Part shown: piece by piece, positions 1 to 49,400 of the stretch | How positions within the stretch are numbered: the first letter of the stretch is position 1 | Layout: each line of letters begins with the position of its first letter | From: Verrucomicrobiia bacterium | Lineage (GTDB): Bacteria > Verrucomicrobiota > Verrucomicrobiia > Limisphaerales > JADLHS01 | Assembly (NCBI GenBank): GCA_026125285.1 | Contig: JAHCLO010000003.1 | Span: 40,661 to 104,660, forward strand | Direction of reading: 5' to 3' | Length of the DNA: 64,000 bases | Notes under the pieces: model-generated | Seen by the model: only the letters and a program-made list of their open reading frames with translations | Databases searched by the model: none | What the model was told of the DNA's origin: nothing | Translations under genes and position numbers: made by a program

Positions 1-1305
1 GCGACTCAGGCTGGTTTGGGATTCATCGCAGGCGTATTGGAGGAACCGGCGCGTTTCCGCGTCGTCCAGCACGGCGGCACCGGCGTTTTCCAGGGCTTGG
101 ATCAGAGGCTGATAGACTGCTTCGACGGCAACGAGGTTGTGTTCCGAACCGCAGATCAGGCCGTTGTCGAAGGACTTGCTCAACACAATGCTGCTCGCCG
201 CCGCGACCACGTCGGCATCCGAGCAGACCAAAGCCGGTGCGTTGCCGGGACCGACCCCAATCGCGGGCCGGCCAGAGCTGTAGGCGGCTTTGACCATACT
301 GCTCCCACCCGTGGCAAGGATCAGAGATACGCCGGAATGTCGAAAGAACATCTCCGTCTTCTTGCGTGAATTCCGATCGCGCACCCATTGCACCAAATCC
401 GGCGGAGCGCCGTGATGCTGAAGAATCGGGAGCAGCAGCCTGCCGAAGGTGTCGCCCAGTTCCCGCGTGGAACGATGAAAACTCAATATGAGCGCGTTGC
501 GGCTTTTCAGGCAGATCAAGGTCTTGAAGATGGCGGTAGCCACCGGATTGGTGACAGGAATCAAACCGAAAACCACGCCGACCGGAGCAGCCCATTCACT
601 GACCTCGCGCTCGTTGCGGCTCAACAGTCCGGCGCCTTTGCGGCCCGCAAGATGACGGAAAACCCCCACGCTGGCCATTCGGTTCTTCAACGTCTTGTCC
701 GGGACGTTGCCCATGCGCGTGACCTGGACGGTCTGTTCCGCCAGTGGCCCGGCTTGCGCGGCAAACGTGCTGGCGATCTCTTCCAGCAAGCTGTCCATCC
801 GCTCCTCCGGCCAGTCGGTCAGTATGGGATACGCCGCTTGCGCCCGCGCAACCATGCGATCAACGTCCGCATCAGTTTCGTTGCCCAAGGCATCGGCGAG
901 CCGCGCGTTGGCCTGACGAAGTTTGAGGGCGGCCTGTTTGCCCAAGTAGGAAAGCAGGGTGATCAACTCCTGGGGCCGCTCCCGCGCCATTGCTTCCTGG
1001 TGCGTAAAATCAAACCGCCGTGCCTGCACGGCCGTGTGGGCGTACGCCGAGGCGGAACGCGGCTTCTGATCCAGCAACGCCAGTTCTCCCAAGACTTCTG
1101 ATCGGCCGACAAAACCCAGCACCGTGTCGGAATCAAGCTCTTCGCGCTCATGCTGGATGGCGACTACTCCGTCATCAATCACGTAAAAACAATCCGCCTC
1201 GTCGCCCTCGCGAAAGATCAGCGCACCCTTGTTGAATGAGACTGGCTCGAAGTACTCCGCCAGGCACTTGTCCCTCCCCAGGAATGTTGCGGTGCTGTTG
1301 CTCAT
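1..1305 (-). CDS. cNMP-binding (CAP effector) domain fused to acylating aldehyde dehydrogenase (AdhE N-terminal/EutE type); partial, C-terminus beyond window edge
   Basis: Not in supplied ORF track (no stop inside window). Own translation of minus strand from ATG (rc of 1303-1305), 435 codons open to position 1: MSNSTATFLGRDKCLAEYFEPVSFNKGALIFREGDEADCFYVIDDGVVAI...LGELALLDQKPRSASAYA (cNMP-binding fold incl. RSAS phosphate-binding cassette), then ...PVGVVFGLIPVTNPVATAIFKTLICLKSRNALILSFH...ILATGGSSMVKAAYSSGRPAIGVGPGNAP...LSKSFDNGLICGSEHN (catalytic Cys motif of acylating ALDHs). Confidence 0.75.
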   Translation of the reverse strand, partial: MSNSTATFLGRDKCLAEYFEPVSFNKGALIFREGDEADCFYVIDDGVVAIQHEREELDSDTVLGFVGRSEVLGELALLDQKPRSASAYAHTAVQARRFDFTHQEAMARERPQELITLLSYLGKQAALKLRQANARLADALGNETDADVDRMVARAQAAYPILTDWPEERMDSLLEEIASTFAAQAGPLAEQTVQVTRMGNVPDKTLKNRMASVGVFRHLAGRKGAGLLSRNEREVSEWAAPVGVVFGLIPVTNPVATAIFKTLICLKSRNALILSFHRSTRELGDTFGRLLLPILQHHGAPPDLVQWVRDRNSRKKTEMFFRHSGVSLILATGGSSMVKAAYSSGRPAIGVGPGNAPALVCSDADVVAAASSIVLSKSFDNGLICGSEHNLVAVEAVYQPLIQALENAGAAVLDDAETRRFLQYACDESQTSLSR

Positions 1306-1641: not shown

Positions 1642-3978
1642 TTGAAGACACGGTTTCTTAACCGCCCAGTGAACTGGATGGCATCGCATCCAGTACTGAC
1701 TCTTGCCGGCTGTCTGCTCATCACCGCCCTCCTCGCCGCGGGATTGCCCCGGCTGCGCTTTTCTAATGACATCGAGGTTTTTTTCGACCAGAGCAACCCA
1801 CAGCTCAAGGCCTATCGGGCGTTGGAGAACACCTACAATAAATGGGACAGCGTGTTGTTCGTGGTTTCTCCCGGCAATAGCAGCGTCTTCACCCGGGAGA
1901 ATCTGATGGCGGTGGAGTATCTCACCCAGGAGGCGTGGCAGCTTCCCTACTCGCGCCGGGTGGATTCGATCAACAACTTTCAGAACAGCTTCGCGCAGGA
2001 AGGCGACTTGATCGTGGAAGACCTTGTTCCTGACGCGGCGGCATTGTCCGATGAAGACCTTGAACGGGTGCAGCGGATTGCGTTGAGTGAGCCGTTGTTG
2101 GTGAACCGGTTGGTTTCGCCTTCCGGCCACGTCACCGGAGTCAATGTGCCGGTGCGCTTGCCAGGCAAGGACCCGTTGAAAGAGCAGCCGGAGGTAGCCC
2201 TGGCCGCGCGGCGGCTGGCCGCAGACGTGGAGGAGAAATTCCCGGGAACGCAAGTGCGGTTGACGGGGATCATCATGATCAACCAGGCGCTCGCCGAAGC
2301 CGGCGTCAAGGACATGGTCACCTTGATGCCCATTATGTTTGGGCTGATGCTCATTGGCTTTGCCATCCTGTTACGCACCTGGGCCTCAGCCCTGGCGGCT
2401 TTGATGGTGATCCTGTTTGCCAATCTGGCCGCCTACGGTCTGGCGGGCTGGTTGGGGATCATCATTTCACCGCCGGTTATTTCCGCCGCCAATATGATCA
2501 TGACGCTGGCGGTGGCCGACTCGGTTCACATCCTGACCACCTTCATGGAGAATTATCGCTCCGGCCTGAGCAAGTCCGCCGCGATGGCCGGGAGCCTGAC
2601 GACGAACTTCGGTCCGGTCTTTTTCACCAGCTTTACGACCTTCCTCGGATTTCTGAGTTTGAACACCAGCGATTCACCACCGTTTCGCGATTTGGGAAAC
2701 GTGGTGGCCGCCGGCGTATTGTTTGCGTGGATCCTCACCTACACCTTGTTGCCCGCGGCGATGCTCCTCCTGCCCGTGCGAACGCCGCGCATGTCCGCCA
2801 GCGGCGAACCAGCCTGGGGAGCCGCGCTGGGTCACTGGATTTGCCGAAATCGTAAGACGGTTCTGGTAGCCAGCACGGTGTTCACGCTCGTGCCGGCCGC
2901 GTTCATCATCCGCAACAAGACCGACGACGAATTTCTCACCTATTTCCACAAGGAAGTTCCCTTCCGCCAACATGCGGATTACGCCATCCAGAATCTGACC
3001 GGTTTTGAGTACATCCAATACTCGCTCGATTCAGGCGAGCCGGGCGGAATTTCCAACCCGGATTACCTGGCCAAAGTGGAGGCGTTTGCGGAGTGGTATG
3101 CGCGGCAACCGAAGGTGCGCCATGTCTTTGCCTACACCGACATCATCAAGCGGCTCAACCGCAACATGCATGAAGACAAACCGGAGGAGTATCGCATCCC
3201 GGAGGAGCGCGAACTGGCGGCGCAATGCCTGTTGCTGTACGAACTGTCGTTGCCCTTCGGCAAGGACCTGACGGACCAGATCAACCTGGATAAATCGGCC
3301 ACGTTGTTCCAGGTGAGTTTGGCGAACATCAGCAGCAACGAGATGCTGGACCTGGACCGGCGCGCGCGGGACTGGTTGCGCGAGAATGACCTTTCGCCGC
3401 AGAGCGAAGGCACCGGGCAGTCGTTGGTGTTCGCGCATATTGGCCTTCGCAACATTCGCAGTCTGCTGGGCGGCACGGTGGGAGCGCTGGTGTTGATCTC
3501 CTTGTGCATGATTTGGGTCACGCGCTCGTGGAAATTCGGACTCCTGAGCCTGCTCCCCAATCTGGCCCCCGCCGCCATCGCGTTCGGCATCTGGGGGATC
3601 TTCGTCGGCGAAGTCGGGCTGGCCCTGTCCGTGGTCATCGGCATGACCCTTGGGATCGTGGTGGATGACAGCATCCATTTGCTCAGTCATTATCTTGAAG
3701 CGCGGCGGGCCGGAGGATTGTCGCCGGAAGCCGCCGTGCAACGGACGCTGAAGGAATTGGTGAAGCCGATGGTCTCAAGCACTGTGATTCTGGTGGTGGG
3801 CTTCGGTGTGCTGGCTTTCTCGAACTTTGAACTGAATCGCGGCATGGGTCTGCTCAGTGCCGTGACCATCGCGGTCGCCCTGATCTTTGATCTCTTCGCC
3901 CTGCCGGCGCTACTGACAGCCATTGATCGCCGCACCAGTCCGTCAAGCTCGAAAGCCAGCCATGCCCTTCCGGGATGA
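1642..3978 (+). CDS. MMPL/RND-superfamily membrane exporter
   Basis: 778-aa ORF with two hydrophobic multi-helix blocks (...IIMINQALAEAGVKDMVTLMPIMFGLMLIGFAILL... and ...LAPAAIAFGIWGIFVGEVGLALSVVIGMTLGIVVDDSIHLLSHY...), each preceded by a large soluble loop, the MMPL/RND permease layout. TTG start at 1642, first ATG at 1678. Confidence 0.85.
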   Translation: MKTRFLNRPVNWMASHPVLTLAGCLLITALLAAGLPRLRFSNDIEVFFDQSNPQLKAYRALENTYNKWDSVLFVVSPGNSSVFTRENLMAVEYLTQEAWQLPYSRRVDSINNFQNSFAQEGDLIVEDLVPDAAALSDEDLERVQRIALSEPLLVNRLVSPSGHVTGVNVPVRLPGKDPLKEQPEVALAARRLAADVEEKFPGTQVRLTGIIMINQALAEAGVKDMVTLMPIMFGLMLIGFAILLRTWASALAALMVILFANLAAYGLAGWLGIIISPPVISAANMIMTLAVADSVHILTTFMENYRSGLSKSAAMAGSLTTNFGPVFFTSFTTFLGFLSLNTSDSPPFRDLGNVVAAGVLFAWILTYTLLPAAMLLLPVRTPRMSASGEPAWGAALGHWICRNRKTVLVASTVFTLVPAAFIIRNKTDDEFLTYFHKEVPFRQHADYAIQNLTGFEYIQYSLDSGEPGGISNPDYLAKVEAFAEWYARQPKVRHVFAYTDIIKRLNRNMHEDKPEEYRIPEERELAAQCLLLYELSLPFGKDLTDQINLDKSATLFQVSLANISSNEMLDLDRRARDWLRENDLSPQSEGTGQSLVFAHIGLRNIRSLLGGTVGALVLISLCMIWVTRSWKFGLLSLLPNLAPAAIAFGIWGIFVGEVGLALSVVIGMTLGIVVDDSIHLLSHYLEARRAGGLSPEAAVQRTLKELVKPMVSSTVILVVGFGVLAFSNFELNRGMGLLSAVTIAVALIFDLFALPALLTAIDRRTSPSSSKASHALPG

Positions 3979-4802
3979 TCCATTTACACTTTATGAAATA
4001 CTCACACCTCACACGTTCACGCGGCCTGCGCGCCGTGTTCCTCCTTACGCTGCTACCTGTGCTTCCGAGTTGGGCGCAGAAGGACCCAGTCGCGACCGGG
4101 CTGGAGATTGCCCAAGAAGCCAAGCGGCGCGACACAGGCTACCAGGATTTTGTCACGGAAGTGACCATGATCCTGCGCAACAAGGCGGGCCAGGAAAGCA
4201 GCCGCAAACTTCTCATCAAGACGATCGAGAACGAGAACAAAGGTGAGAAGAGCCTGCTCGTGTTTCAATCCCCGGCGGACATTGACGGCACCGCGCTCCT
4301 GACCTTTTCCTCGCGAACCGAAGCGGACGATCAATGGCTTTATCTGCCGGCCACCAAACGGGTGCGGCGCATCGCCACCGGCAGCAAAACCGGTTCGTTT
4401 GTGGGGAGCGAATTCACGTACGAGGATATCAGCCCGCAACAGGTGGAGAAGTACACCTATCGTTACATCCGCGACGAAGCCTTTGAGGGCCAGACCTGCT
4501 TTGTGGTGGAACGCTATCCCACCGATCCCAAGTCGGGCTACAAACGGCAGGTCACATGGCTGGACCAGGCCGAGTACCGTCCTTTGAAAGTTGATTTTTA
4601 CGACAGCAAAGATGCCCATGTCAAAACGCTCCACTTCCGCGGCTATCAGAAGTACCTCGACCGGTTTTGGCGGCCGGACGAATTGTTGATGGAGAACAAA
4701 CTTTCCGGCAAAAGCACCAAGCTAGTGTTCCAGAACTACAAGTTCCGCACCGGACTGAAGGAGGCCGATTTTGACCAGAACCTCCTCGACCGCCTGCGCT
4801 AA
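3975..4802 (+). CDS. LolA-like 'outer membrane lipoprotein-sorting' family protein
   Basis: 275-aa ORF overlapping the exporter stop by 4 nt; N-terminal signal peptide; motif DQWLYLPATKRVRRIATGSKTGSFVGSEFTYEDI typical of the LolA-like family often paired with MMPL exporters. Start may be ATG 3993. Confidence 0.75.
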   Translation: MIHLHFMKYSHLTRSRGLRAVFLLTLLPVLPSWAQKDPVATGLEIAQEAKRRDTGYQDFVTEVTMILRNKAGQESSRKLLIKTIENENKGEKSLLVFQSPADIDGTALLTFSSRTEADDQWLYLPATKRVRRIATGSKTGSFVGSEFTYEDISPQQVEKYTYRYIRDEAFEGQTCFVVERYPTDPKSGYKRQVTWLDQAEYRPLKVDFYDSKDAHVKTLHFRGYQKYLDRFWRPDELLMENKLSGKSTKLVFQNYKFRTGLKEADFDQNLLDRLR

Positions 4803-4820
4803 CCCCGGCGGGCAGAACCC

Positions 4821-6020
4821 ATGAGGGCATGGAAGTGCATCGCAATTGGTGCGAGCCTGCTACTGGGCGGTGCTGTCGCGTGGCCGGCGGAGCCGCGAGT
4901 GGGCGGTTACGCGGCGATGGAATTTCGCGGATTCCCGGTCGAGCCGCTTGACCGCCGTCAGAGCTACGCGGAACCTTCTTTCCAACTGCAACCAGAGTTC
5001 CGGCTGGATTGGGATCAACCGCGGCTCGGCGTTACTTTCACTCCATTCTTCCGTTATGACTACCGCGACTCGGAGCGGACGCACGCGGACGTTCGCGAGA
5101 TGAATTTATCCTGGCGACAGGGAAACTGGGACACCCGGTTCGGGGTAAGCAAAGTGTTCTGGGGCTCACTCGAAGCGGTGCATCTGGTGGATGTGATCAA
5201 CCAGAGCGACCTGGTCGAACATCCGGACGGTGAAGAGAAGCTGGGGCAGCCGATGCTCAATGTCAGTTACCAGTCGGAGATCGGCCGGTGGAGCTTCTTC
5301 TACCTGCCCTACTTTCGCGAGCGGACTTTTCCCGGCAAGGATGGGCGACTGCGGCTGCACCCGCGAGTGGTCAATGATGATCCGGTCTTTGAGTCGTCCC
5401 TGGAGGAATGGCACCCGGACTTCAGCCTGCGTTGGAGCCATTCGATTCAGAGCCTGGACTTGGGAGTTTATTACTTCCGGGGAACGACCCGCGAACCTGC
5501 CTATCGGTTGGCAGTGCGCGGCACGGAGCCGGTGCTCCGCCCCGTGTACGACATCGTCCACCAGGCCGGACTGGACCTGCAATGGGCGGTGTCCGACTGG
5601 CTATGGAAAGGCGAAGTGATGTTCCGCAGCGGGCAGGATCGTGACTTTTCCCGAGTGGGTTTCGGGTTTGAATACACGTTTCATGGAATTTTCGGTACGG
5701 CGGCCGACTTGGGCTACATCAATGAGTTTTACTACGATTCGATGGGGAACAACCTGCTGAATCCATACGAGCGGGATTTGGTGACCGGGGTGCGGCTGGC
5801 GTTCAACGACCTCAAGAGCACCACACTGCTGGCCGCGATCCTGACTGATGTGGTAGATGGCTCGAGCGTCCTCACCTTCGAGGCCACCCGACGGCTCAGG
5901 AAGAACTGGGTGTTGCGACTCGAAGCCTCGGCTTTCATTTCCATTCCCCGGGACGACTATCCCTTGAACAGTTTTCGCCGCGATCACTACCTCCAGTTGG
6001 GTCTGGAATATCATTTCTAA
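4821..6020 (+). CDS. putative outer-membrane beta-barrel protein, family unknown
   Basis: 399-aa ORF; signal peptide MRAWKCIAIGASLLLGGAVAWPA; Tyr/Phe/Trp-rich alternating segments; C-terminal ...LQLGLEYHF (aromatic terminal residue typical of OMPs); 18 nt downstream of the LolA-like gene. Confidence 0.5.
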   Translation: MRAWKCIAIGASLLLGGAVAWPAEPRVGGYAAMEFRGFPVEPLDRRQSYAEPSFQLQPEFRLDWDQPRLGVTFTPFFRYDYRDSERTHADVREMNLSWRQGNWDTRFGVSKVFWGSLEAVHLVDVINQSDLVEHPDGEEKLGQPMLNVSYQSEIGRWSFFYLPYFRERTFPGKDGRLRLHPRVVNDDPVFESSLEEWHPDFSLRWSHSIQSLDLGVYYFRGTTREPAYRLAVRGTEPVLRPVYDIVHQAGLDLQWAVSDWLWKGEVMFRSGQDRDFSRVGFGFEYTFHGIFGTAADLGYINEFYYDSMGNNLLNPYERDLVTGVRLAFNDLKSTTLLAAILTDVVDGSSVLTFEATRRLRKNWVLRLEASAFISIPRDDYPLNSFRRDHYLQLGLEYHF

Positions 6021-7602: not shown

Positions 7603-7634
7603 TTGACCGTTTTGGTTGGGAAAAATCGTAAACC
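7603..7634 (+). promoter_or_regulatory. candidate ECF-type promoter upstream of kinase-sigma operon
   Basis: TTGACCGTTTTGGTTGGGAAAAATCGTAAACC; 25/32 ungapped identity to 11209-11240. TGACCGT (-35-like) and CGTAA (-10-like, ECF promoters typically carry CGT) about 18 nt apart; 27 nt upstream of ATG 7658. Confidence 0.4.
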
Positions 7635-7657
7635 TTGCTAGAAACAGCGGTGAGCCC

Positions 7658-10501
7658 ATGAGCGCAAAACGAGATCGCGAAGAGGAAATCTTCGATACCG
7701 CCCGCGAACTCGCCGCCGATGAGCGGGCCGCGTACCTCGCCGAGCAGTGTGGCCAGGACGCGGAGTTGCGCCAGCGGATTGAGGGAATGTTGGAGGTGGA
7801 CGCGGTAGCCGGGGATTTCTTCCAGACCAAGGCCGCGCCGCCATCAACCGGAATGGTTGCCGATGCCAGCCTGTCGCCCTTGATTGAAAAGGCCGGGGAC
7901 CGGATTGGCCGTTACAAGCTGCTTGAGCAGATTGGAGAAGGCGGCATGGGCCTGGTTTACATGGCGGAGCAGGATCAGCCGGTGCGGCGTTCGGTGGCGC
8001 TCAAGATTATCAAGCTGGGCATGGACACCCGCCAGGTGGTGGCGCGGTTCGAAGCTGAACGGCAGGCTCTGGCGATGATGAACCATCCTCATATCGCCAA
8101 GGTATTCGACGCGGGCGCGACGGATTCGGGACGGCCGTACTTTGTCATGGAACTCGTGCGCGGTATTCCCATCACGGAGTATTGCGATGTGAATTTCCTG
8201 CCCACCCGGCAGCGCCTTGATCTTTTCATTCTGGTTTGCCAGGCCGTCCAACATGCGCACCAAAAAGGAATCATCCACCGCGACCTCAAGCCTTCGAACA
8301 TCCTCGTCACTTTGAGCGACGGAGTGCCGTGGCCCATGATCATTGACTTTGGAATCGCCAAGGCCACCAATCAGCGGCTCACCGAGAAAACGCTTTTCAC
8401 CCATTTTGCGCAGATGATCGGCACGCCCGCCTACATGAGCCCGGAGCAGGCCGAAATGAGCAAGCTGGACGTGGACACGCGCACCGACATCTACGCGCTG
8501 GGGGTGCTGCTTTATGAGTTGCTGACGGGCACAACGCCATTTCCCACCAAGGAACTCCTGAGCCTTGGCTACCGCGAGATGCAGCGCACCATCGTGGAAA
8601 AAGAACCCCTGCGCCTGTCCACCCGCCTCAGCACCATGGCCAACGAGGAGCGAACGGTGGTGGCAAGAAATCGAAGCGTGGATGCTACCGCTTTGGCGAA
8701 GCTGTTTCGTGGAGACCTCGACTGGATCGCCATGAAGTGCCTCGAGAAGGATCGCGCCCGCCGTTACGAAACCGCCAACGGCTTGGCCGCCGACATCCAA
8801 CGGCACATGAACAACGAGCCGGTCGTAGCTCGTCCGCCCAGTCGTTGGTACGAGTTCCAGAAGACCGTCCGGCGCCACAAATTTGGCTTTGCGGCGGCGG
8901 CAGCGGTTATCCTTGTGCTGGCGATCGGCGTTTTAGTGAGCACCGTCCAAGCGCTGCGTGCCACCCGTGCGAAGAAGGAAACCGCCGAGACGCTCAAGCA
9001 AGTCTCCGCCGAGCGCGACGCCAAGGAGCAGGCGCTCAAAGACGCGGAGGCTATCTCAACGTTCCTCACCGAAGTCTTCCAAAGTCCGGACCCGACGCGT
9101 GACGGGCGCACCATCACCGTGGTCGAGAACCTCGACAGAGCCGCGACAAGGCTGGAGACCGACCTCGCCGATCAGCCCGGCCGCCGCGCCAAACTGCAGG
9201 ACACTCTGGCCAATACCTATGCTTCCCTTTCCATTTGGGGGGAAGCCAGGCGGTTGCGGGAGAAGGTACGGGATTATTACGTTGCCACCTACGGTCCGGA
9301 GCACCCTGATACCCTCGCGGCCATGTATAATCTGGCGGTTTCACGCCGACACGAGAACCTCCCGTTGATGGAGGAAGTATTGACTCTCCGCCGCAAAGTG
9401 CTCGGTCCAGAGCACCCCGATACGCTGCGCACGATGATCGCCACGGCACGTTTTTATGGTGACAACGGCCGCGAGGACGAGGCGCTCAGCGTTGCTGAAC
9501 AAGCTCTCGCTCTCAATCGCAAAGTGCTCGGCTCGGAACACCCAAACACGTTCGCCGCCATGTATACGCTGGCATTTTGCTACGCCTTTCACGGGCCCCC
9601 GGACGAATCGATCAAATCGATCGAACTGTTCGAAGAAGTTCTGACGCACCAGCGGAAGGTATTCGGGCCGAGGCATCCGACCACGATCGTCACGATGTGG
9701 AACCTGGGAGCAGCCCTTCGAATAGCCGGTCGGCAAACGGAAGGATTCCAGATGATGGAGGAGTCGCTAAAACTCCGGCGGGAAGTGCAAGGCGACGAGC
9801 ACGGCGACGCAAGGTGGGCGATCGAAAAATTAGCGGAATTCTACAAAATCACTGGCCACGGGGACAAAACGCTCCCCCTGTTCGAGGCGGCCGCCGTCAG
9901 TGAGCCAGAAGATATCTTTTCAGCGATGCGACTCGCCACCTCGCAATTGTGGTTCGGCTGGGACGCAAGCTACGCCACTACCGTCCGTCGAATGCTCGAT
10001 TGGACGAAAAGTGCCACGAACACTGATGACTTCGAGCGCGTAGCCAAGCTCGCCTGCCTGCGCCCCAGCTCCGACGTACCGACCCGGGAAGCCGCCCTCG
10101 CCCTTGCCCGTAAAGCCGTGGAGCTCGGCCGGGAGAACCAGGCCGGAATGCCCTGGTATCAGATGACCCTTGGCATGGCCGAATACCGGAGCGGCAATGA
10201 CGCGGAAGCAGTCGAGGCATTGACGCGGGCTCAGGCAGCAGCCTCGGTGGACGCGGAAGGGCACTACCGCGAGCTGATCCGGGGCACCGCCGGCTTCTAC
10301 CTTGCCATGAGCCTCTCCCGGCAAGGCAAGCAAGCCGAAGCCCGCGCGCTCTTCACCGCCACTGAGGCCGCGATGCAACCCTTCCCCGCCGACGAGCAGA
10401 AACTCCCTCACGAAGCCAACCACGACGACCTCATCCTCTGGCTGGCCTGTAAGGAAGCCAAGGCGATGCTGGCCCAACCCGACGGCGCGCCCAGAAAGTG
10501 A
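7658..10501 (+). CDS. Ser/Thr protein kinase with transmembrane segment and C-terminal TPR repeats
   Basis: Hanks kinase motifs GEGGMGLVYMA, VALKIIK, HRDLKPSNIL, DFGIAK, GTPAYMSPEQ; TM helix FGFAAAAAVILVLAIGVLV; repeated ...GPEHPDTL...YNLA... TPR-like units. ORF opens at 7616, ATG 7658 (MSAKRDREEEIF) preferred. Confidence 0.9.
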   Translation: MSAKRDREEEIFDTARELAADERAAYLAEQCGQDAELRQRIEGMLEVDAVAGDFFQTKAAPPSTGMVADASLSPLIEKAGDRIGRYKLLEQIGEGGMGLVYMAEQDQPVRRSVALKIIKLGMDTRQVVARFEAERQALAMMNHPHIAKVFDAGATDSGRPYFVMELVRGIPITEYCDVNFLPTRQRLDLFILVCQAVQHAHQKGIIHRDLKPSNILVTLSDGVPWPMIIDFGIAKATNQRLTEKTLFTHFAQMIGTPAYMSPEQAEMSKLDVDTRTDIYALGVLLYELLTGTTPFPTKELLSLGYREMQRTIVEKEPLRLSTRLSTMANEERTVVARNRSVDATALAKLFRGDLDWIAMKCLEKDRARRYETANGLAADIQRHMNNEPVVARPPSRWYEFQKTVRRHKFGFAAAAAVILVLAIGVLVSTVQALRATRAKKETAETLKQVSAERDAKEQALKDAEAISTFLTEVFQSPDPTRDGRTITVVENLDRAATRLETDLADQPGRRAKLQDTLANTYASLSIWGEARRLREKVRDYYVATYGPEHPDTLAAMYNLAVSRRHENLPLMEEVLTLRRKVLGPEHPDTLRTMIATARFYGDNGREDEALSVAEQALALNRKVLGSEHPNTFAAMYTLAFCYAFHGPPDESIKSIELFEEVLTHQRKVFGPRHPTTIVTMWNLGAALRIAGRQTEGFQMMEESLKLRREVQGDEHGDARWAIEKLAEFYKITGHGDKTLPLFEAAAVSEPEDIFSAMRLATSQLWFGWDASYATTVRRMLDWTKSATNTDDFERVAKLACLRPSSDVPTREAALALARKAVELGRENQAGMPWYQMTLGMAEYRSGNDAEAVEALTRAQAAASVDAEGHYRELIRGTAGFYLAMSLSRQGKQAEARALFTATEAAMQPFPADEQKLPHEANHDDLILWLACKEAKAMLAQPDGAPRK

Positions 10502-14283: not shown

Positions 14284-14328
14284 ACTTCCGCCTGGCACTA
14301 TATGCAATTACTTATGACGTTGTGTTTA

Positions 14329-16502
14329 GCATCAGGGATGAGGCGTTTAACTTCTGCACCAGCCTGGCGACCGTGACGATCGGCAGTGGCGTCACCACCA
14401 TCGGGTTTAATGCGTTTTTCTACTGTACCAGCCTGACGAGCGTGACGCTCCCTGACAGTGTCACCAGCATCGGGAATGCTGCGTTTTCTTACTGCACCAG
14501 CCTGACGAACGTGACGCTCGGCAGCAATGTCACCAGCATCGGGCAATCCCTGTTTCGCAACTGCTACAGCCTGACGAACGTGACGATTCCCAACACCGTC
14601 ACCAACATCGGGAATCAGGCGTTTGAATATTGCACCAGCTTGACGAGTGTGGCGATTCCCAACAGCGTCACCAGCATCGGGAGTTCTGCGTTTTACTGGT
14701 GCACCAACCTGACGAACGTGACGCTCGGCAGCAGCGTCACCAGCATCGGGAATGGTGCGTTTCATTTCTGCACCAGATTGACAAGTGTGACGATTCCCAA
14801 CAGCGTCACCAGCATCGGGAGTTCTGTGTTTTCCTACTGCACCAGCCTGACGAACGTGACGATCGGCAGCAGCGTCACCAGCCTTGAGTTTGGTGCGTTT
14901 TCCCACTGTACCAACCTGACGAGTATGATCATCCCCAACAGCGTCACCAACATCGGGAATTGGGCGTTTTCCTCCTGCAGCAGCCTGACGAGCGTGGCGA
15001 TCCCCAACAGCGTCACCAGCATCGGGGTTGGGCCATTTTCCTCCTGCACCAGCCTGACCCATATTTCGGTGGATGCCGCCAATGCGGTTTACAGCAGTCT
15101 CGACGGGGTCTTGTTTGACAAAGCGCAAACGACGTTGATTCAGTTTCCTGGCGGGCGCGGTGGAGGTTACGCGATTCCCAACACCTTCACCCACATCGGG
15201 GATTCTGCGTTTGACGGCTGCAGCAGCCTGACGAGCGTGACGATCCCCGACAGCGTCACCCACATCGGGGATTCTGCGTTTAACGGCTGCAGCAGCCTGA
15301 CGAGCGTGACGATCCCCAACAGCGTCACCAGTATCGGGTTCTTTGGGGCGTTTTACAGCTGCACCAGTCTGACCAATATTTCGGTGGATGCCGCCAATGC
15401 GGTTTACAGCAGTCTCGACGGGGTCTTGTTTAACAAGGCGCGAACGACGTTGATTCAATTTCCCGGCGGGCGCGGCGGCAGTTACGCCATTCCCAACAGC
15501 GTCATCGACATCGAGACTGCTGCGTTTTCCTACTGCACCAGCCTGACGAGCGTGACGATCCCCAACAGCGTCACCACCATCAGGTATGACGCATTTGCCT
15601 ACTGCACCAGCCTGACGAGCGTGACGATCCCCAACAGCGTCAACAGCATTTGGGATCAGGCGTTTCTCAACTGCACCAGTCTGACGAACGTGACGATTCC
15701 CAACAGCGTCCCCGGCATCGGGGGTTTGATGTTTTACAACTGCACCAGTCTGACGAGCGTGACGATCGGCAGCAGCGTCACCTTCATCGGGGATTATGCG
15801 TTTTACAACTGCACCAGCCTGACGAGTGTGACGATTCCCAACAGCGTCGCCAGCATCGGGGGTAATGCGTTTTTCTTCTGCACCAGCCTGACCAATTTTT
15901 CAGTGGATGCCGCCAATGCGGTTTTCAGTAGTCTCGGCGGGGTCTTGTTTGACAAGGCGCAAACGACGTTGATTCAATTTCCCGGCGGGCGCGGCGGCAG
16001 TTACGCCCTCCCCAACAGCGTCACCAGTATCGGGGACTATGCGTTTTACAACAGCACCAGTCTGACCAGCGTCACGATCGGAAACGGCCTCACCAGCATC
16101 GGGCACTCTGCGTTCTATGAATGCACCAGCCTGACGAGCCTCACGTTTCTAGGCAATGCGCCGTCCGCAGGTTCGAGTATGTTCGCCAAGGTCGGCCCGG
16201 GCGCAAAGGTCTATTATTACTACGGCACCACCGGTTGGGGGCCAACGTATGGCGGATTGCCCACCGTGATGCTGGGCGCGCCCGCGCCGCAAGTCGGCGC
16301 TGGCAGCGCGGGCGTGCAACCGGGCGGTTACGGCTTCACCATCACCGGCATCGTCAATCAAACCATCGTGGTCGAAGCCAGCACCTATCTGACGAACTGG
16401 CAATCCATCTGGACCAGCACGCTGTCCGCCGTCTCCACCAATTTTGTGGATCCGCAATGGCTGAATCACCCGCGCCGCTTCTATCGCCTGCGGTCGCCGT
16501 AG
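14329..16502 (+). pseudogene. BspA-type leucine-rich-repeat surface protein, 3' part
   Basis: Continues ...SIRDEAFNFCTSLATVTIGSGVTTIG... 23-aa LRRs. Joining 13212 to 14329 gives ...IPGSVTSIRDEAFNFCTSL... and a 2790-nt (930-codon) uninterrupted frame. Confidence 0.85.
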
Positions 16503-35551: not shown

Positions 35552-37855
35552 GTGAAGCTCACGCCCTACAAACCGGCCCCGGTATTGATCACCGCGTGCG
35601 TGATCCTGCTGGTAATCCTGCTCCGGGTGCTTCATTTGGACCTGTTCGACCGCTTGGAACGCATGACTTACGACATGCGCGTTCGTGCGGCACTGAAGTT
35701 TTCTCAGCCCTCGGCCACGAATCTTGGTTTCGTTTACATAGATGAGGAGAGCATTGACCAGGTGCGCACCAATGCGGTTGGATTCAGATTCGGCTTGTAC
35801 TGGCCGCGGCAGGTTTACGGAAGACTGATTCAAGAGCTTGCCTTGCAGGGGGCCAAGGCGGTTGCCTTCGACGTGGTTTTCGGTGAGTTGCGCCAGGATC
35901 ATGCGTCGGTGGAAATGGCTGACGGCAGCTTCATCGAGTCGGACGAATTCTTCGCACGGCAGATGCGACAGGCTGAAAACGTAATCCTCGCCACCACGTC
36001 GGACCTCGAAATGCCGGTTCTATTCGCCAGCAATGCCGCCGCCGTCGGTGATATTACCACGGACAAAGACTCGGACGGGATTCTGCGGCGTGCCAAGGCG
36101 TTTCGCATCCAGCGACATTGGCATGCAGCCTTTCGCCAGGTGGCGGCTGACCCCGAATACGGCATTGATCTCAGCCGCGCCCGGATTGAGCCAGGGCGGA
36201 TTGTGCTGCCGCAAGCCAACGGTGATGAAGTCGAAATCCCAGTGGACCAGGACAACAATTTCGATCTGGCTGATTTCGGCACCCCGCCTCCAGGTGTGCC
36301 TCCGACTGCGCGCGCGTTCACCGAGGAGCGGATTTGGCACATGGGCATCGTTCTCGCCGCCCAGGAAATGGGCCTGGACTTGGAAAGCGCAGAGATTGCG
36401 CTTGATCGTGGGCGCATCACCCTGCGCGCTCCTGACGGTGTGCAACGGGTAATCCCGGTGGATGCGGGCGGCTATTTCTATGTGGACTGGCGGTTGCCAC
36501 CGACTGCCGCGGCACTCGAACGAGAACCGATTCATTCGTTGCTCGCACAGTATAAGCGCCGGATTGATGGCGAGCCCGTTGAATTCCGTGATAACTGGAG
36601 GGACAAACTCGTCGTGGTTGGCTCGAACGTCCGCAGCGGCAACGATCTGACTGATCGGGGGGCCACCCCGCTGGAAAAGGACACCTTGCTGGTGAGCAAG
36701 CACTGGAATGTAGCAAACTCCATCATCACCGGGCGTTTTGTGCAGCGAACCTCATTGGCGACTGATTGCGCGCTGATCGCCTTGCTGAGTGTGGTGACGG
36801 CCGTGCTGACTTGGCGACTTCGCGTGTTTTCAGCTGCCGGGGGCATTGTTTTTCTGGCTTTGGCCTACGGCGGTGCGGCCTTCTTCCTCTATGCCCAAAG
36901 CGGTTATTGGTTGCCCTTGGTTCTGCCCATTATCGGCGCGGTTCTCGTTGAGCATGGCCTGCTGGTCACTTATCGCGTCGTCTTTGAACAGCGCGAACAG
37001 CGCCGCGTGAAATCTGTGTTTGCCCGAGTGGTATCGCCGAATGTCGCCAGCGAATTGCTGGGCATGGAACGGCTGGCGCTGGGTGGCGCACGGCGCGACG
37101 TCACCGTGCTGTTCGCCGACGTACGCGGGTTCACGGAATTGACTGACACGTCGCATGAAAACGTGGCTGCCTACGTACGCGAGCATCAACTGGCCGGCGA
37201 GGCGGCGGAGTTATGTTTTGACGAAGCCGCGCGTGAGACGCTGAACACCGTGAATCTGTATTTGGCCCGAGTGGCCGATTCGGTCAAACAACATAACGGC
37301 ACGCTCGACAAGTACATTGGTGATTGCGTGATGGCATTCTGGGGTGCGCCCACTCCCAACCCCCAACACGCGGTGGCTTGCGTGCGCTCCGCCATAGACG
37401 CCCAACGCGCCATTCATGAACTGAATCAGCGGCGCACGGAACAAAACCGTCTGTTGCAACAGGAGAATCAGGCGCGTATTTCCGCTGGCCTGCCGCCCAA
37501 ACCACTGCACGCGACCCTGGCGCTCGGCACCGGCATCAATAGCGGCCCCGTTACCGTGGGTTTGATGGGCTCCGACGCGCACATCTACAACTACACGGTC
37601 TTTGGTCGCGAAGTTAATCTGGCCAGCCGGCTTGAGACAGTATCCGGTCGTGGGCGTATTGTGATAAGTGAAGCCACCTATCAGTCTTTGCAGCGAGATG
37701 ATCCGGCACTGGCCGCGACCTGCATCGAACTGCCGCCCGCCACCGTCAAAGGCTTCCGTACGGCCATCAAGAATTACGAAGTGCCCTGGTTGCCCGTGAC
37801 GGACGCTCACGCCCCGGCTCAGATCATGCCGCGTTCGACTCCGTCAGGGGAGTAA
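35552..37855 (+). CDS. CHASE2 sensor domain / class III adenylate (guanylate) cyclase
   Basis: GTG start; N-terminal TM + large periplasmic region + 3 TM (CHASE2 layout); catalytic VTVLFADVRGFTELTD, KYIGDCVMAFWGAP, GINSGPVTVGLMG, YTVFGREVNLASRLE. Confidence 0.85.
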   Translation: MKLTPYKPAPVLITACVILLVILLRVLHLDLFDRLERMTYDMRVRAALKFSQPSATNLGFVYIDEESIDQVRTNAVGFRFGLYWPRQVYGRLIQELALQGAKAVAFDVVFGELRQDHASVEMADGSFIESDEFFARQMRQAENVILATTSDLEMPVLFASNAAAVGDITTDKDSDGILRRAKAFRIQRHWHAAFRQVAADPEYGIDLSRARIEPGRIVLPQANGDEVEIPVDQDNNFDLADFGTPPPGVPPTARAFTEERIWHMGIVLAAQEMGLDLESAEIALDRGRITLRAPDGVQRVIPVDAGGYFYVDWRLPPTAAALEREPIHSLLAQYKRRIDGEPVEFRDNWRDKLVVVGSNVRSGNDLTDRGATPLEKDTLLVSKHWNVANSIITGRFVQRTSLATDCALIALLSVVTAVLTWRLRVFSAAGGIVFLALAYGGAAFFLYAQSGYWLPLVLPIIGAVLVEHGLLVTYRVVFEQREQRRVKSVFARVVSPNVASELLGMERLALGGARRDVTVLFADVRGFTELTDTSHENVAAYVREHQLAGEAAELCFDEAARETLNTVNLYLARVADSVKQHNGTLDKYIGDCVMAFWGAPTPNPQHAVACVRSAIDAQRAIHELNQRRTEQNRLLQQENQARISAGLPPKPLHATLALGTGINSGPVTVGLMGSDAHIYNYTVFGREVNLASRLETVSGRGRIVISEATYQSLQRDDPALAATCIELPPATVKGFRTAIKNYEVPWLPVTDAHAPAQIMPRSTPSGE

Positions 37856-46401: not shown

Positions 46402-49400
46402 TCAAGGGTTGGTGGGCGGCAAGCTGCTTTCCGCCGAGGATGGGGCCGGTCTTGAAGCAGTTTCGTCCGTATTGACGATGCCCAAGGCTTCGCGAAAGAG
46501 CATGCGTGCCATGAGCCAGTCATGCCAATCATTGTCGAGGAAGGGCGGCCCTGCGGGTGGATCGGCAGCATGTGAGAGGATCGCTCGACCGAGGTTGAGG
46601 AATTTGGCCGCTTCCTGGGGCCGGCCCAGATGATGGAAGATCAGGCCGCCCAGCGAATAGGCGAATGCGTCGTAGGGGAATACTCCTCTCGGGGGGGCGC
46701 AACGGGTAAACCATTCCGTGGCTTGGGCATGGTTACCGCCGCGAAATTCGGCCAGCGTCTTGGCGAGCAAGAAATAAACGTAATACGAGTGTCTCTCGGT
46801 GCCGGCAATGGTTCGGTTGGCCAAAGCGAGAGCATCGTTCAAATCGGCACCCAACGTGGGCACGAGGAGGCCGGCCTTGGCGATACGTTCCAGCACCTCT
46901 GGCTGGTCGCTGTCTCCGAAGCGGGCGAGCATTTCGCGCCAGGTCTTGCGGTAGCTCGTTTCGTCTCCCACCTGAAGATGGAGGATCACAGCGCGGTACC
47001 AATTAAAGTGATCGCCGGGATCCAACTCCAGCACGCAGACGATGGCGGCGCGGGCATCCTGCCACCGCCCCAAGCGGGCACAGGCATCAGCCAGTGCCAT
47101 GTGGGCAGCCGCAGACTGCGGTTCGATCTGTGCCTTCTCCTGCGCGCGCTTCACCAACTCAGTCGAGCGTGATGCTGCGCGAAGCGCCGCCTGCATTGAG
47201 GCAGCCCGCTGGTCGCCCGGATTAACCCGGAGGGCTTCGCGAATCACGGCCTCAGCTTCCGGCTGTCGCCCCAGCCGGAGAAGCGTTTCGGTGAGAGCCA
47301 AATAGGGCTCGAGGAAGTCGGGTTGCGCTTCAATCGCTGCCCGAAGTTCAGGTTCCGCGGCGGCATATTCGCCCAGGACGAACAGTTGCCCGGCCAGGTT
47401 GTACCGCGTAATGGCGCGGGTAGGAACAACGCGGACCGCCTCCCGGTAAGCAGCAATCGCCTCCTGAACTCGACCTTGTTCTTGCAGAACGAAGCCCAGG
47501 CCCTGATGCGCTGAGTCGGCGACCGGGTCGCGGCGAAGCGCCTCACGGAAGATTGCCTCGGCTTCGTCCCATCGGCCCTGTTCCGATAGGAGCGTCGCCA
47601 GGCTGAGGTGCGTCTTGGACCCGGTGATGCCCAGGCGAATGGCTTCGCGATATTCGGCTTCGGCCTCCGCCACCTCCCCTTCGTACAAAAGGACCGTGGC
47701 TAGGTCAGCCCGTTCCGCCGGGTGATCGGGCGCCAGATGCACGGCTTGGCGGAACACTTCTTTGGCATCGGCCCACCGCCCCTGTTGCAGGAGAAAACCG
47801 CCCAAGTGGTACAGGTGGTGAGGGTCGTCAGGTTTCAGACGGATGGCCTCCCGGAATTTCAGTTCGGCATTCCGGGCATCGCCCCGGGCCAAAAGCACGC
47901 CGCCTAACACCCGGTGAGACAGTGCAAAGTCGGGTTGCATCCGGATGGCCTCCCGCAGTTCTTCCTCTGCTTCCTCGAGACGATTGCATTTCAAGAGGGC
48001 AATTCCCAGGTTAATCCGGAAGACAGGGCGACGCGGGCACAGCGCCAGAGCGGCTCGAAAACATTCCACCGCCCGTTCGGGACTTACGGGCAGAAGACAC
48101 GCACCCAATTGCTGGTGCAGCCAATAGTCACCCGGGTGGTGCCTACATGCATGGGTGAGGATGTCCACCGCGAGCGGACGCTCATCGGCAAGCTGCAGCA
48201 GACTGCTAATGAGCAGGATCGTGTGTGGCGCTTGCTCCGCCAATTCTGGTTGTCGAGCCAGAAACCGGAGGGTTTCCTTGTCGGCACGCTGGTAGGCGTC
48301 AAGAAGTCGTTCCCGCCACGGAGCGGGGTCGCATTGTCGCGCAACCGCGATCAAGTGCTCCCGGCCCGGAAGTCTTCCCGTTTCCTTGACTTCCAGCCAA
48401 TCATCCAAGCCGAAGACGAGTTGAGCATGGATCGCAGAGGCGCGGACGCGTCGCCCGACTTCATCGGGGGTGAGGGATTCCAAATCCAACCCATATCGCC
48501 GGAAGGCAGCCTGGTAGGCACGATCGCCGGCGAGATAGTCGAAATGGTCATCCTTCACCTCGCTGCGCTCGAAGCGGATCTCCTCCAAGCGCTCCGCCAT
48601 TTCCAGGTCCCGGCGCAGCGCAAGCACCTGTCGATCAAGTTTGGATCTGCCTTCCCCCGGCGGGATCAGGTCCTCGGCACGTCTCAACGCCGCAGACGCT
48701 TCGAGCAACTTGTGGTTATGGATGGCCTCAGCCCCGTCGGCGAGCGCTTGGGAGATGCGTTGATCGAATGCCAACTGGCGCACGATTCGATCCCGCACCG
48801 ACCACCCGATGCCGACGACCATGGCTAGGAGTGCAATCAGGGCGAGCGAGGCGGCTACCAGCGATACCCGATGCCGCCGGGCAAATTTCTTCAGCCGATA
48901 GGAAGTCGAGGGTGGGCCTGCCCGCACCGGCTGGTCGCGGAGATAACGCTCCAAGTCTCGCGCCAGTGCGCCGGCCGACTCGTAGCGCCGGTCACGCTCC
49001 TTCTCCAGGCATTTCATGACGATCCAGTCGAGTTCGCCGCGCAGGGCGGTCGTCAGACTCCGCGGCTCCAGTCCCCGGCGGGCCGCGTTCGCGGGCAAGG
49101 TCGCTGAACTCGCCAATCGCGCGCTGGGTTTGGCCGGCTCCTCCTGGCGAATGATGCGCAACACCTCGTCGAACGCCGCCGAACGCAACCGCTCCCTCGC
49201 AAAGGGCCGCTCTCCGGTAAGCAGCTCGTAGAGGAGCACTCCAAGCGAATACAGGTCCGACCGGGTGTCAACGTTTGAGTGATCGAGCCGGGCCTGCTCG
49301 GGGCTCATGTAGTCTATGGTGCCAACGATCTGACCTGCCTGGGTGAAGACTGTGTGTTCGGTCAATGGGTCGCCGATCGCCTTGGCCAGACCAAAGTCAA

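Follow-up and report, generated by a model that had tools for sequence, protein, structure and literature searches.

We describe a gene for a putative second messenger-gated metabolic enzyme at the left end of a 64,000-nucleotide stretch of DNA from a Verrucomicrobiia bacterium (contig JAHCLO010000003.1 of assembly GCA_026125285.1, positions 40,661 to 104,660; the whole stretch is called the window below). The gene, here named CNB-ALDH, encodes a cyclic nucleotide-binding (CNB) domain fused to a CoA-acylating aldehyde dehydrogenase (ALDH). It is read from the minus strand, where window positions 1–1305 hold 435 stop-free codons that open with an ATG at 1305–1303 and leave the window through its left edge; a first-pass annotation made from the sequence alone had claimed this single unbroken frame, and the translation bears it out. 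The same annotation remarked that the frame was missed by the accompanying list of open reading frames (ORFs), and it is indeed unlisted, because the lister drops ORFs running off an end. A database search found a full-length protein of 590 aa (P0001) that is 100% identical to the frame, as are metagenome contigs. The window holds the 5' 74% of the gene (1–1305, minus strand; aa 1–435 of 590), and the last 155 codons fall past its left edge. In P0001 the CNB domain is followed by a helical linker and then by a complete AdhE-N/EutE-type acylating ALDH, with nothing after residue 590.

Both domains proposed for the frame score above their Pfam cut-offs: cNMP_binding (PF00027) matches aa 22–99 with 58.0 bits (cut-off 27.5), and Aldedh matches aa 142–408 with 71.2 bits (cut-off 23). 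The motifs quoted in the first-pass annotation, including FREGDEADCFYVIDDG, GELALLDQKPRSASAYA, and FDNGLICGSE, are all found in the frame. Metagenome contigs from three independent studies cover the gene with no indels and no substitutions inside it, and a single contig spans 10–1461, across the domain junction, with no differences. A stop codon or frameshift between the CNB and ALDH parts was looked for in this way, and none was present. The sequence occurs in many activated-sludge metagenomes, and a metatranscriptome contig maps at 367–566, inside the gene. An exact 47-mer from the window start had no match among the metagenome contigs. CNB-ALDH is, with near certainty, a real and intact fusion gene.

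The CNB β-barrel (aa 22–99; 1009–1242, minus strand) has PDB sequence matches to the CNB domain of PKA RI-alpha (E ~5e-17) and to M. tuberculosis CRP, and an AlphaFold2 (AF2) model places its strands at aa 20–99. Its phosphate-binding cassette (GELALLDQKPRSASAYA, aa 73–89; 1039–1089, minus strand) has the Gly-Glu...Arg-Ser-Ala layout (GELALLDQKPRSASA), and a 27-member family alignment shows no variation at Gly73, Glu74, Arg83, or Ala85. In canonical cassettes, the Gly-Glu pair contacts the ribose 2'-OH and the Arg contacts the phosphate. The cassette motif of the window protein agrees with the canonical bacterial consensus (Kannan et al. 2007, PMC2246266). The complete CAP-type domain reported in the first-pass annotation is thus supported by the Pfam match, the canonical cassette, and a modeled barrel followed by B and C helices (pLDDT mostly 80–95). 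The helical linker (aa 100–145; 871–1008, minus strand), with helices at 100–109 and 111–140 and an invariant Lys128-Leu129-Arg130 motif, corresponds to the B and C helices of the CNB fold; the pLDDT dips at aa 131–140. It had been described as about 50 aa long and helical; it is helical in the model, and its length there is closer to 45 aa. The CRP model of NCBIfam aligns aa 26–138 of the window protein with CRP positions 30–138, which places the Lys-Leu-Arg motif approximately at the C-helix segment of CRP that contacts adenine. The NCBIfam model for Pat, a cAMP-regulated acetyltransferase discussed below, also matches the CNB region with 40 bits.

A candidate source of the ligand is encoded in the same window. 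As the first-pass annotation stated, the gene at 35552–37855 (plus strand) encodes a CHASE2-class III nucleotide cyclase (Pfam CHASE2 106 bits, Guanylate_cyc 78 bits); it lies 34 kb from the CNB-ALDH gene and is not adjacent to it. At the purine-specifying positions, the cyclase has Lys (in LDKYIGD) and Thr (in NYTVFG). Lys and Thr form the class IIIb adenylate cyclase pattern seen in Spirulina CyaC and soluble adenylate cyclase, whereas guanylate cyclases have Glu together with Cys or Arg. The window cyclase therefore appears to be class IIIb adenylate cyclase-like. CHASE2-cyclases of like architecture lie directly beside CNB-ALDH in several Actinomycetota loci, for example L073. The Arg-Ser-Ala cassette, which is the CAP pattern, and the adenylate-type cyclase in the window point to cyclic AMP (cAMP) as the most likely ligand, although selectivity between cAMP and cGMP is not readable from such residues with confidence. 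We consider it probable that CNB-ALDH is regulated by a cyclic nucleotide.

The CoA-acylating ALDH domain occupies aa 146–435 in the window (1–870, minus strand) and continues to aa 582 in P0001, as indicated by the Pfam Aldedh match, the end-to-end alignment given below, and Foldseek. The catalytic motif FDNGLICGSE (aa 379–388; 142–171, minus strand), with the nucleophile Cys385 at 151–153, aligns with FDNGVVCASE of AdhE. The best PDB sequence matches of this part are the ALDH domains of AdhE (7dag and 3my7, E ~5e-57), in which FDNGVVC stands opposite FDNGLIC. Residues 146–582 of P0001 align end to end with ACDH, a characterized acetylating acetaldehyde dehydrogenase from Geobacillus thermoglucosidasius (5j78, 300 bits), and the same end-to-end alignment with the AdhE ALDH domains runs through the EK, GHT, and TLGCG motifs. 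Cys385, His508, Glu476-Lys477, G556-C557-G558, and the GVGPGN loop are invariant in the 27-member alignment; among the copies in 83 fetched loci (L001–L083), the Cys motif is kept in 78 and GHT in 79. The AF2 model of P0001, built as a monomer on the 27-sequence alignment, has a mean pLDDT of 84.4 and a pTM of 0.73, with the barrel at aa 20–99 and the ALDH fold from 146. Its target-normalised TM-scores in Foldseek are 0.87 to 5j78 and 3k9d and 0.88–0.89 to the succinyl-CoA reductase SucD (8cei), with E-values of ~1e-42 to 1e-37. Residues 553–575 have low AF2 confidence and a highly conserved sequence, and may form an element swapped between subunits, which a model of the monomer could not position.

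These data agree with the AdhE-N/EutE-type assignment and the FDNGLICGSE motif given in the first-pass annotation: the top NCBIfam matches are AdhE, EutE, SauS, and PRK15398, and the top PDB matches are all acylating enzymes. The features that mark the acylating ALDH clade, namely a Pfam score above threshold, the FDNGxxC, GHT, and TLGCG motifs, and a complete superposable fold, are all present, and the protein is very likely a catalytically active acylating ALDH. The same annotation had raised the prospect of an iron-dependent alcohol dehydrogenase domain farther downstream, as in full AdhE; P0001 comes to its end at residue 590, and the following gene starts about 20 bp downstream in the closest relatives. 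A full bifunctional AdhE (NF010378) was rejected, since P0001 has 590 aa vs ~870 and the next gene in the relatives encodes a CNB-patatin protein; P0001 matches only positions 11–451 of the 872 in that model, and its 433 bits fall short of the cut-off, 951. The scores for EutE (TIGR02518, 366 vs 620 bits) and SauS (NF047625, 307 vs 600 bits) likewise fall below the equivalog cut-offs. The acetyl-CoA/acetaldehyde interconversion proposed earlier is accordingly a guess from the nearest homologs, as all NCBIfam equivalog cut-offs are missed, and we regard acetaldehyde as a possible but tentative substrate.

CNB-ALDH belongs to a widespread family. All 120 of the best database relatives (49–88% identity) contain both PF00027 and PF00171, and nearly all have 585–636 aa; where they are named, they are called "aldehyde dehydrogenase family protein" or carry a generic COG label. 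When one genome per species was scanned, at least 495 species-level genomes contained a confirmed relative; cultured carriers include Albimonas sp. CAU 1670 and Pseudonocardia sp. TRM90224. Among the best 80 of these, the phyla include Chloroflexota, Gemmatimonadota, Verrucomicrobiota, Actinomycetota, Planctomycetota, Bacteroidota, and Cyanobacteria, together with Alpha- and Gammaproteobacteria, Acidobacteriota, KSB1, and others; the family is present in about ten phyla. The first-pass annotation had treated the fusion as an isolated oddity and left its frequency to a database query. The architecture is instead common and lies inside a conserved cluster of CNB-fused enzymes, and a characterized example was not found in the literature searched. 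We conclude that the fusion is under strong selection. In the fetched loci, 74 copies had an alignable CNB region, and after two truncated or masked copies were set aside, 64 of 72 retained the cassette Glu together with the cassette Arg; the window protein sits in this canonical-cassette majority.

The CNB-ALDH gene is linked to genes for two other CNB-fused enzymes. Four contigs whose ALDH is 88–90% identical to that of the window share an identical seven-gene layout. In one arm, CNB-ALDH leads a tight operon and is followed by a CNB-NTE_Ploop-Patatin gene, a Pyr_redox_2-NDH2_C-CNB gene (NDH-2-like below), and a gene for a 781-aa lipoprotein, with gaps of 5–24 bp. The divergent arm contains genes for an MMPL transporter, a LolA-like protein, and a 399-aa protein, and the window carries these three in identical order at 1642–6020, so that a CNB-patatin/NDH-2-like continuation downstream in the window organism is strongly indicated. 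The domains of the two partner enzymes, CNB + NTE_Ploop + Patatin and Pyr_redox_2 + NDH2_C + CNB, exceed the Pfam cut-offs in two relatives that share just 55% identity. The 781-aa protein, the fourth operon gene (L001, 15328–17673, plus strand), is a predicted lipoprotein with an LSGC lipobox and one CxxCH-like cytochrome c motif; it also occurs in L011, L031, L084, and L085 and is confined to Verrucomicrobiota-type loci.

Neighbors within 7 kb of the ALDH gene were counted in the 83 loci with tblastn and phmmer probes, as crude six-frame gene calling under-called genes in high-GC loci (68 of 83 ALDH ORFs). In the 52 evaluable loci, which have at least 3.5 kb on both flanks, an NTE-type CNB-patatin gene was found in 25, an NDH-2-like-CNB gene in 23, either one in 29, and both in 19. 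Two or more CNB-domain ORFs were present in 39 of the 83 loci and three in 21. Verrucomicrobiota and Gemmatimonadota have the gene order ALDH-PAT-NDH, some Actinomycetota have PAT-NDH-ALDH, and others have NDH-ALDH, and the orientation likewise varies between phyla; this variation favors functional linkage over inherited synteny. Because the three CNB domains of one operon share only 26–28% mutual identity, yet the cassettes GELALLDQKPRSASA, GEMALLGGSIRGATV, and GEVAVFRGIRRTATV are all canonical, the three fusions appear to have arisen independently and to have converged on the same kind of ligand site. We think it quite likely that CNB-ALDH forms a functional module with the CNB-patatin and NDH-2-like enzymes. 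Across the 83 loci, other recurrent neighbors included an MMPL transporter (19 loci), a class III cyclase (9 loci, in several of which it is immediately beside the ALDH), and a class III aminotransferase (6 loci), and the complete MMPL/LolA-like/399-aa trio was found in 8 loci from four phyla. The survey revealed no recurrent alcohol dehydrogenase, eut, pdu, or sau genes. One neighboring aminotransferase copy scores above the NCBIfam cut-off for γ-aminobutyrate (GABA) transaminase (524.7 vs 506.65 bits). Phosphoethanolamine phospho-lyase was considered as the identity of the aminotransferase partner and rejected, because the partners resemble putrescine/GABA transaminases.

Further links come from Rosetta-stone fusions. 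A search with residues 1–200 covered 1.84 billion representatives at 50% identity, and among its best 150 hits about 50 are single-stretch matches over the CNB domain, the linker, and the ALDH start. Sizing the family by E-value was confounded by proteins with multiple CNB repeats, whose stretches are summed; the single-stretch count used in its place is approximate. A Pfam scan of the long or offset representatives revealed CNB-ALDH-Pyr_redox_2 (P0135), CNB-ALDH-SDR (P0139), CNB-ALDH-class III aminotransferase (P0149), FHA-CNB-ALDH (P0156), and SRPBCC-CNB-ALDH (P0138). In P0135, the ALDH would be physically joined to the flavoprotein family so often encoded beside it, and the SDR and aminotransferase fusions attach aldehyde-making or aldehyde-consuming enzymes. 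In NCBIfam, the fused aminotransferase is closest to putrescine aminotransferase.

The divergent arm in the window begins with an MMPL/HAE3-type RND transporter (1642–3978, plus strand; Pfam MMPL 117 bits, NCBIfam HAE3 subfamily). It is followed by a LolA-like/TP_0789-like protein of the periplasmic lipid-carrier type (3975–4802, plus strand; Pfam LolA_like 204 bits, weak DUF1329) and by the 399-aa protein (4821–6020, plus strand), the third member of the trio, which has a signal-like N-terminus and the C-terminal sequence ...LGLEYHF, an ending typical of outer-membrane barrels. The last of these has no Pfam or NCBIfam match and is probably an outer-membrane barrel. The trio looks like an uncharacterized three-part envelope lipid conduit. 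In the intergenic region between CNB-ALDH and MMPL (1306–1641), the MMPL-proximal ~250 bp are highly conserved: compared with L001, an 88%-identity relative, the mean column identity is 86% over the region and ~93% in the MMPL-proximal part (~1400–1640). Conservation of ~93% where the proteins are just 88% identical is unusual for non-coding DNA. The region contains one weak sigma-70-like site on the minus strand (1559–1532). Control of the divergent promoter through a CRP box was rejected, as the intergenic region has no such site and window-wide matches number 15 against 21.7 expected. No riboswitch or other known RNA was found in the conserved block by Rfam at the gathering threshold or at E <= 1. 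The block may serve the MMPL operon as a 5' leader or a regulatory element.

Elsewhere in the window, genes at 7616–10501 (plus strand) and 46402–49995 (minus strand) each encode a large Ser/Thr protein kinase that carries a TPR array. In 11 of the 83 loci, a Ser/Thr kinase is encoded no more than 7 kb from the ALDH gene, and together with the FHA variant, whose added domain binds phospho-Thr, these kinases suggest that there may be cross-talk between kinase and cAMP signaling. A 726-aa BspA-type leucine-rich-repeat protein (14322–16502, plus strand; LRR_5, 595 bits) is unrelated to CNB-ALDH.

We propose that CNB-ALDH converts an aldehyde to an acyl-CoA under cAMP gating, as one step of a co-regulated lipid/redox module, a reading that we favor with moderate confidence. 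In this scheme, cAMP would bind the canonical cassette, and the C-helix with its invariant Lys-Leu-Arg motif would shift. By analogy with Pat, PKA-R, Epac, and Bd1971, the shift would free the ALDH from an autoinhibited or mis-assembled state, so that the effect of the ligand would be activation rather than inhibition. Once switched on, the ALDH would convert an aldehyde, CoA, and NAD+ to an acyl-CoA and NADH. The oxidative direction is favored by the direct ALDH-Pyr_redox_2 fusion and the lack of a recurrent alcohol dehydrogenase partner. The CNB-patatin lipase would release lipid-derived material upstream of the ALDH; lipid turnover is suggested as the source by the patatin, MMPL, and LolA-like associations. 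The NDH-2-like enzyme would hand the electrons of NADH to quinone. Since the ALDH, patatin, and NDH-2-like enzymes each carry a CNB domain that is unrelated to the other two and whose cassette is intact, a single messenger could gate all of them post-translationally through separate sensors.

Several points weigh against this scheme. Neither partner gene is present in about 44% of the evaluable loci, and the ALDH can therefore work alone. For the window organism itself, the downstream genes are predicted from the four relatives with 88–90% identity. The allosteric path is conjectural, and the AF2 model carries no inter-domain confidence. P0001 scores under every NCBIfam equivalog cut-off, and the putrescine/GABA-type aminotransferase partners suggest 4-aminobutanal or succinate semialdehyde in some members, so that the aldehyde probably differs within the family. 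AdhE/EutE-type enzymes usually act on short-chain substrates, a poor fit with fatty aldehydes derived by a lipase. Each of the fusion variants is a single 50%-cluster representative, and they could include miscalled genes. The sensor itself also varies. The members without an intact cassette Glu and Arg are mostly a Solirubrobacterales-type subclade (L039, L041, L050, L052, and L063) and Calothrix L061, in which His replaces the Arg; this suggests that the ligand has been changed or lost in these lineages; in some Arg-to-His members, the Glu of the cassette is also replaced by Asp or His. Moreover, the Acidobacteriota members L069, L071, L075, L077, L080, and L081 have no CNB β-barrel. Owing to these two groups, regulation is not universal in the family. 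Two of the barrel-less members, L075 and L077, retain a segment aligned to aa 104–145, the C-helix, and this hints at a sensor-independent structural role for the helix in this ALDH clade.

A broader version of the scheme is that the cluster constitutes an operon-encoded, transcription-independent "cAMP regulon", in which three enzymes with independently acquired sensors are switched jointly by a single messenger and serve a hitherto unrecognized lipid-turnover or lipid-damage pathway together with the MMPL/LolA-like/barrel conduit in about ten phyla. Membrane or stored lipid would be deacylated, the derived aldehyde would be converted to acyl-CoA, and NADH would pass its electrons to quinone. 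We consider this extension possible but doubtful.

The alternative that survives best is the reverse direction, in which a cyclic nucleotide-gated acyl-CoA reductase uses NADH to make an aldehyde for an alcohol, a wax, an amine, or a signaling product. On this reading, the ALDH and the NDH-2-like enzyme would drain NADH in parallel and form a redox-relief valve, not a producer-consumer pair. The closest characterized homologs are the AdhE ALDH domain, the succinyl-CoA reductase SucD, and PduP, which run reductively in vivo in many organisms. The CNB-ALDH-SDR variant mimics the acyl-CoA to aldehyde to alcohol layout of AdhE, and the fused aminotransferase could equally aminate an aldehyde product. 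However, the Pyr_redox_2 fusion and the frequent NDH-2-like neighbor are more readily explained by an ALDH that produces NADH for the flavoprotein to oxidize, the 83 loci show no recurrent alcohol dehydrogenase neighbor, and the carriers include many aerobes from soil and activated sludge. We regard reduction as plausible but unlikely.

It is improbable, to a further degree, that the CNB-fold domain binds a ligand other than cAMP or cGMP, or that it only dimerizes or scaffolds the ALDH. To our knowledge, cAMP binding has not been established for the CNB domains of eukaryotic NTE, and in the present family the Glu or Arg of the cassette is lost in 8 of 72 members, while some Acidobacteriota members keep the helix region alone. 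NtcA, CooA, and FNR-type members of the fold have other ligands, and CNB-fold families 17–21 bind non-nucleotide ligands (Kannan et al. 2007, PMC2246266). These non-nucleotide families, however, do not have the Gly-Glu...Arg-[ST]-Ala cassette (PMC2246266), which is invariant here across 49–88% identity and is kept in 89% of the broader sample, and cyclase genes are adjacent in several loci.

It is very improbable that the cluster is a Pycsar- or CBASS-type anti-phage or abortive-infection system, in which a cyclase would produce a cyclic nucleotide upon infection and CNB-fused effectors, here a patatin phospholipase and an NAD(H)-consuming enzyme, would in turn kill the cell or halt its growth. 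CNB domains are found in Pycsar effectors, and CBASS has a patatin effector. As in Pycsar, the product of a cyclase would be read by CNB-fused effectors, class III cyclases lie near the ALDH in 9 of 83 loci, and PADLOC gives weak matches of the CNB domains to PycTIR and PycC models and of the cyclase to PycC. These matches reach 54 bits at most, involve generic CNB and cyclase domains only, and do not extend over the ALDH or flavoprotein parts, and no system-level PADLOC match was obtained. The outputs here are metabolic enzymes, and the window cyclase has CHASE2 and a purine-type Lys, unlike a pyrimidine cyclase. The family is vertically widespread with stable, housekeeping-like MMPL/LolA-like synteny, unlike patchy defense islands, and the 83 loci contain no recurrent mobile-element or defense neighbors. 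Finally, an artifact, either two neighboring genes fused through an error of sequencing or assembly or else a pseudogene, might be suspected of an ORF cut by the edge of a window of metagenome origin, but is effectively refuted by the identical junction in three independent studies, the architecture and length common to hundreds of homologs, the invariant functional residues in both halves, and the metatranscriptome contig within the gene.

The proposed cAMP-gated enzyme can be compared with several known systems. The mycobacterial protein lysine acetyltransferase Pat/KATmt (Rv0998 and MSMEG_5458), like the window protein, has an N-terminal CNB domain with a canonical cassette fused to a metabolic enzyme, and the two would share, by analogy on the side of the window protein, a direct transcription-independent control of acyl-CoA-related metabolism by cAMP. 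cAMP activates Pat by relief of autoinhibition. The NCBIfam Pat model also matches the CNB region of the NDH-2-like partner. Pat differs in its output, a GNAT acetyltransferase that acts on proteins (acetyl-CoA synthetase), with the similarity confined to the CNB domain, and no multi-CNB-enzyme operon is known to contain it. Bd1971 of Bdellovibrio, a cAMP-sensing EAL phosphodiesterase (6hq2–6hq7; PDB match E ~1e-9), also has an N-terminal CNB domain on an enzyme, whereas its output is a c-di-GMP phosphodiesterase, which is signaling rather than central-metabolic; the Bd1971 paper deals with nucleotide-pathway convergence in a cAMP-sensing enzyme (PMC6717892). On the catalytic side, the N-terminal domain of AdhE (7dag, 6ahc, and 3my7), ACDH (5j78), and EutE can be aligned to aa 146–582 with 33–38% identity (Foldseek). 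None of these has a CNB domain, and the window protein does not have the iron-dependent alcohol dehydrogenase half of AdhE. CNB-ALDH proteins make up a separate clade: family members share at least 45% identity with one another and ~35% with characterized acylating ALDHs.

The architectures of the two operon partners are known as NTE/PNPLA6-type CNB-patatin esterases and as the "Bact_Pyrredox" CNB family (PMC2246266). The cassette of the NDH-2-like partner, GEVAVFRGIRRTATVRA, resembles the published Bact_Pyrredox consensus, GEMGLISGRRRGATVRA (PMC2246266), although the published class has tandem CNB domains and the partner here has one. We found no link of either architecture to an ALDH or to a three-enzyme CNB operon in the literature searched. 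The 2007 census of 30 CNB families contains no ALDH class, and the word "dehydrogenase" is absent from its main text (Kannan et al., PMC2246266). Full-text searches, with most subscription journals outside their coverage, found no paper describing CNB-ALDH or the three-enzyme cluster. The statement in the first-pass annotation that no characterized example is known thus agrees with both the searches and the census. The principle of CNB-to-enzyme signaling is known; what is new here is the ALDH output domain and the multi-sensor operon arrangement. As the architecture is common in databases, its novelty lies in its breadth, its uncharacterized state, and the coherent multi-CNB module.

Bacterial cAMP signaling is understood mainly through CRP-type transcription factors, and direct allosteric control of enzymes is known in only a handful of cases such as Pat and Bd1971. 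CNB-ALDH adds an aldehyde-to-acyl-CoA enzyme class with an intact cAMP-type sensor in hundreds of species from about ten phyla. If the sensors work, the cluster would show in compact form how a second messenger can switch an entire short pathway by acting on its proteins. Such a protein could supply a cAMP-switchable acyl-CoA/aldehyde module for metabolic engineering. The family also offers an entry point to cAMP physiology in the poorly studied Verrucomicrobiota, Gemmatimonadota, Chloroflexota, and Solirubrobacterales.

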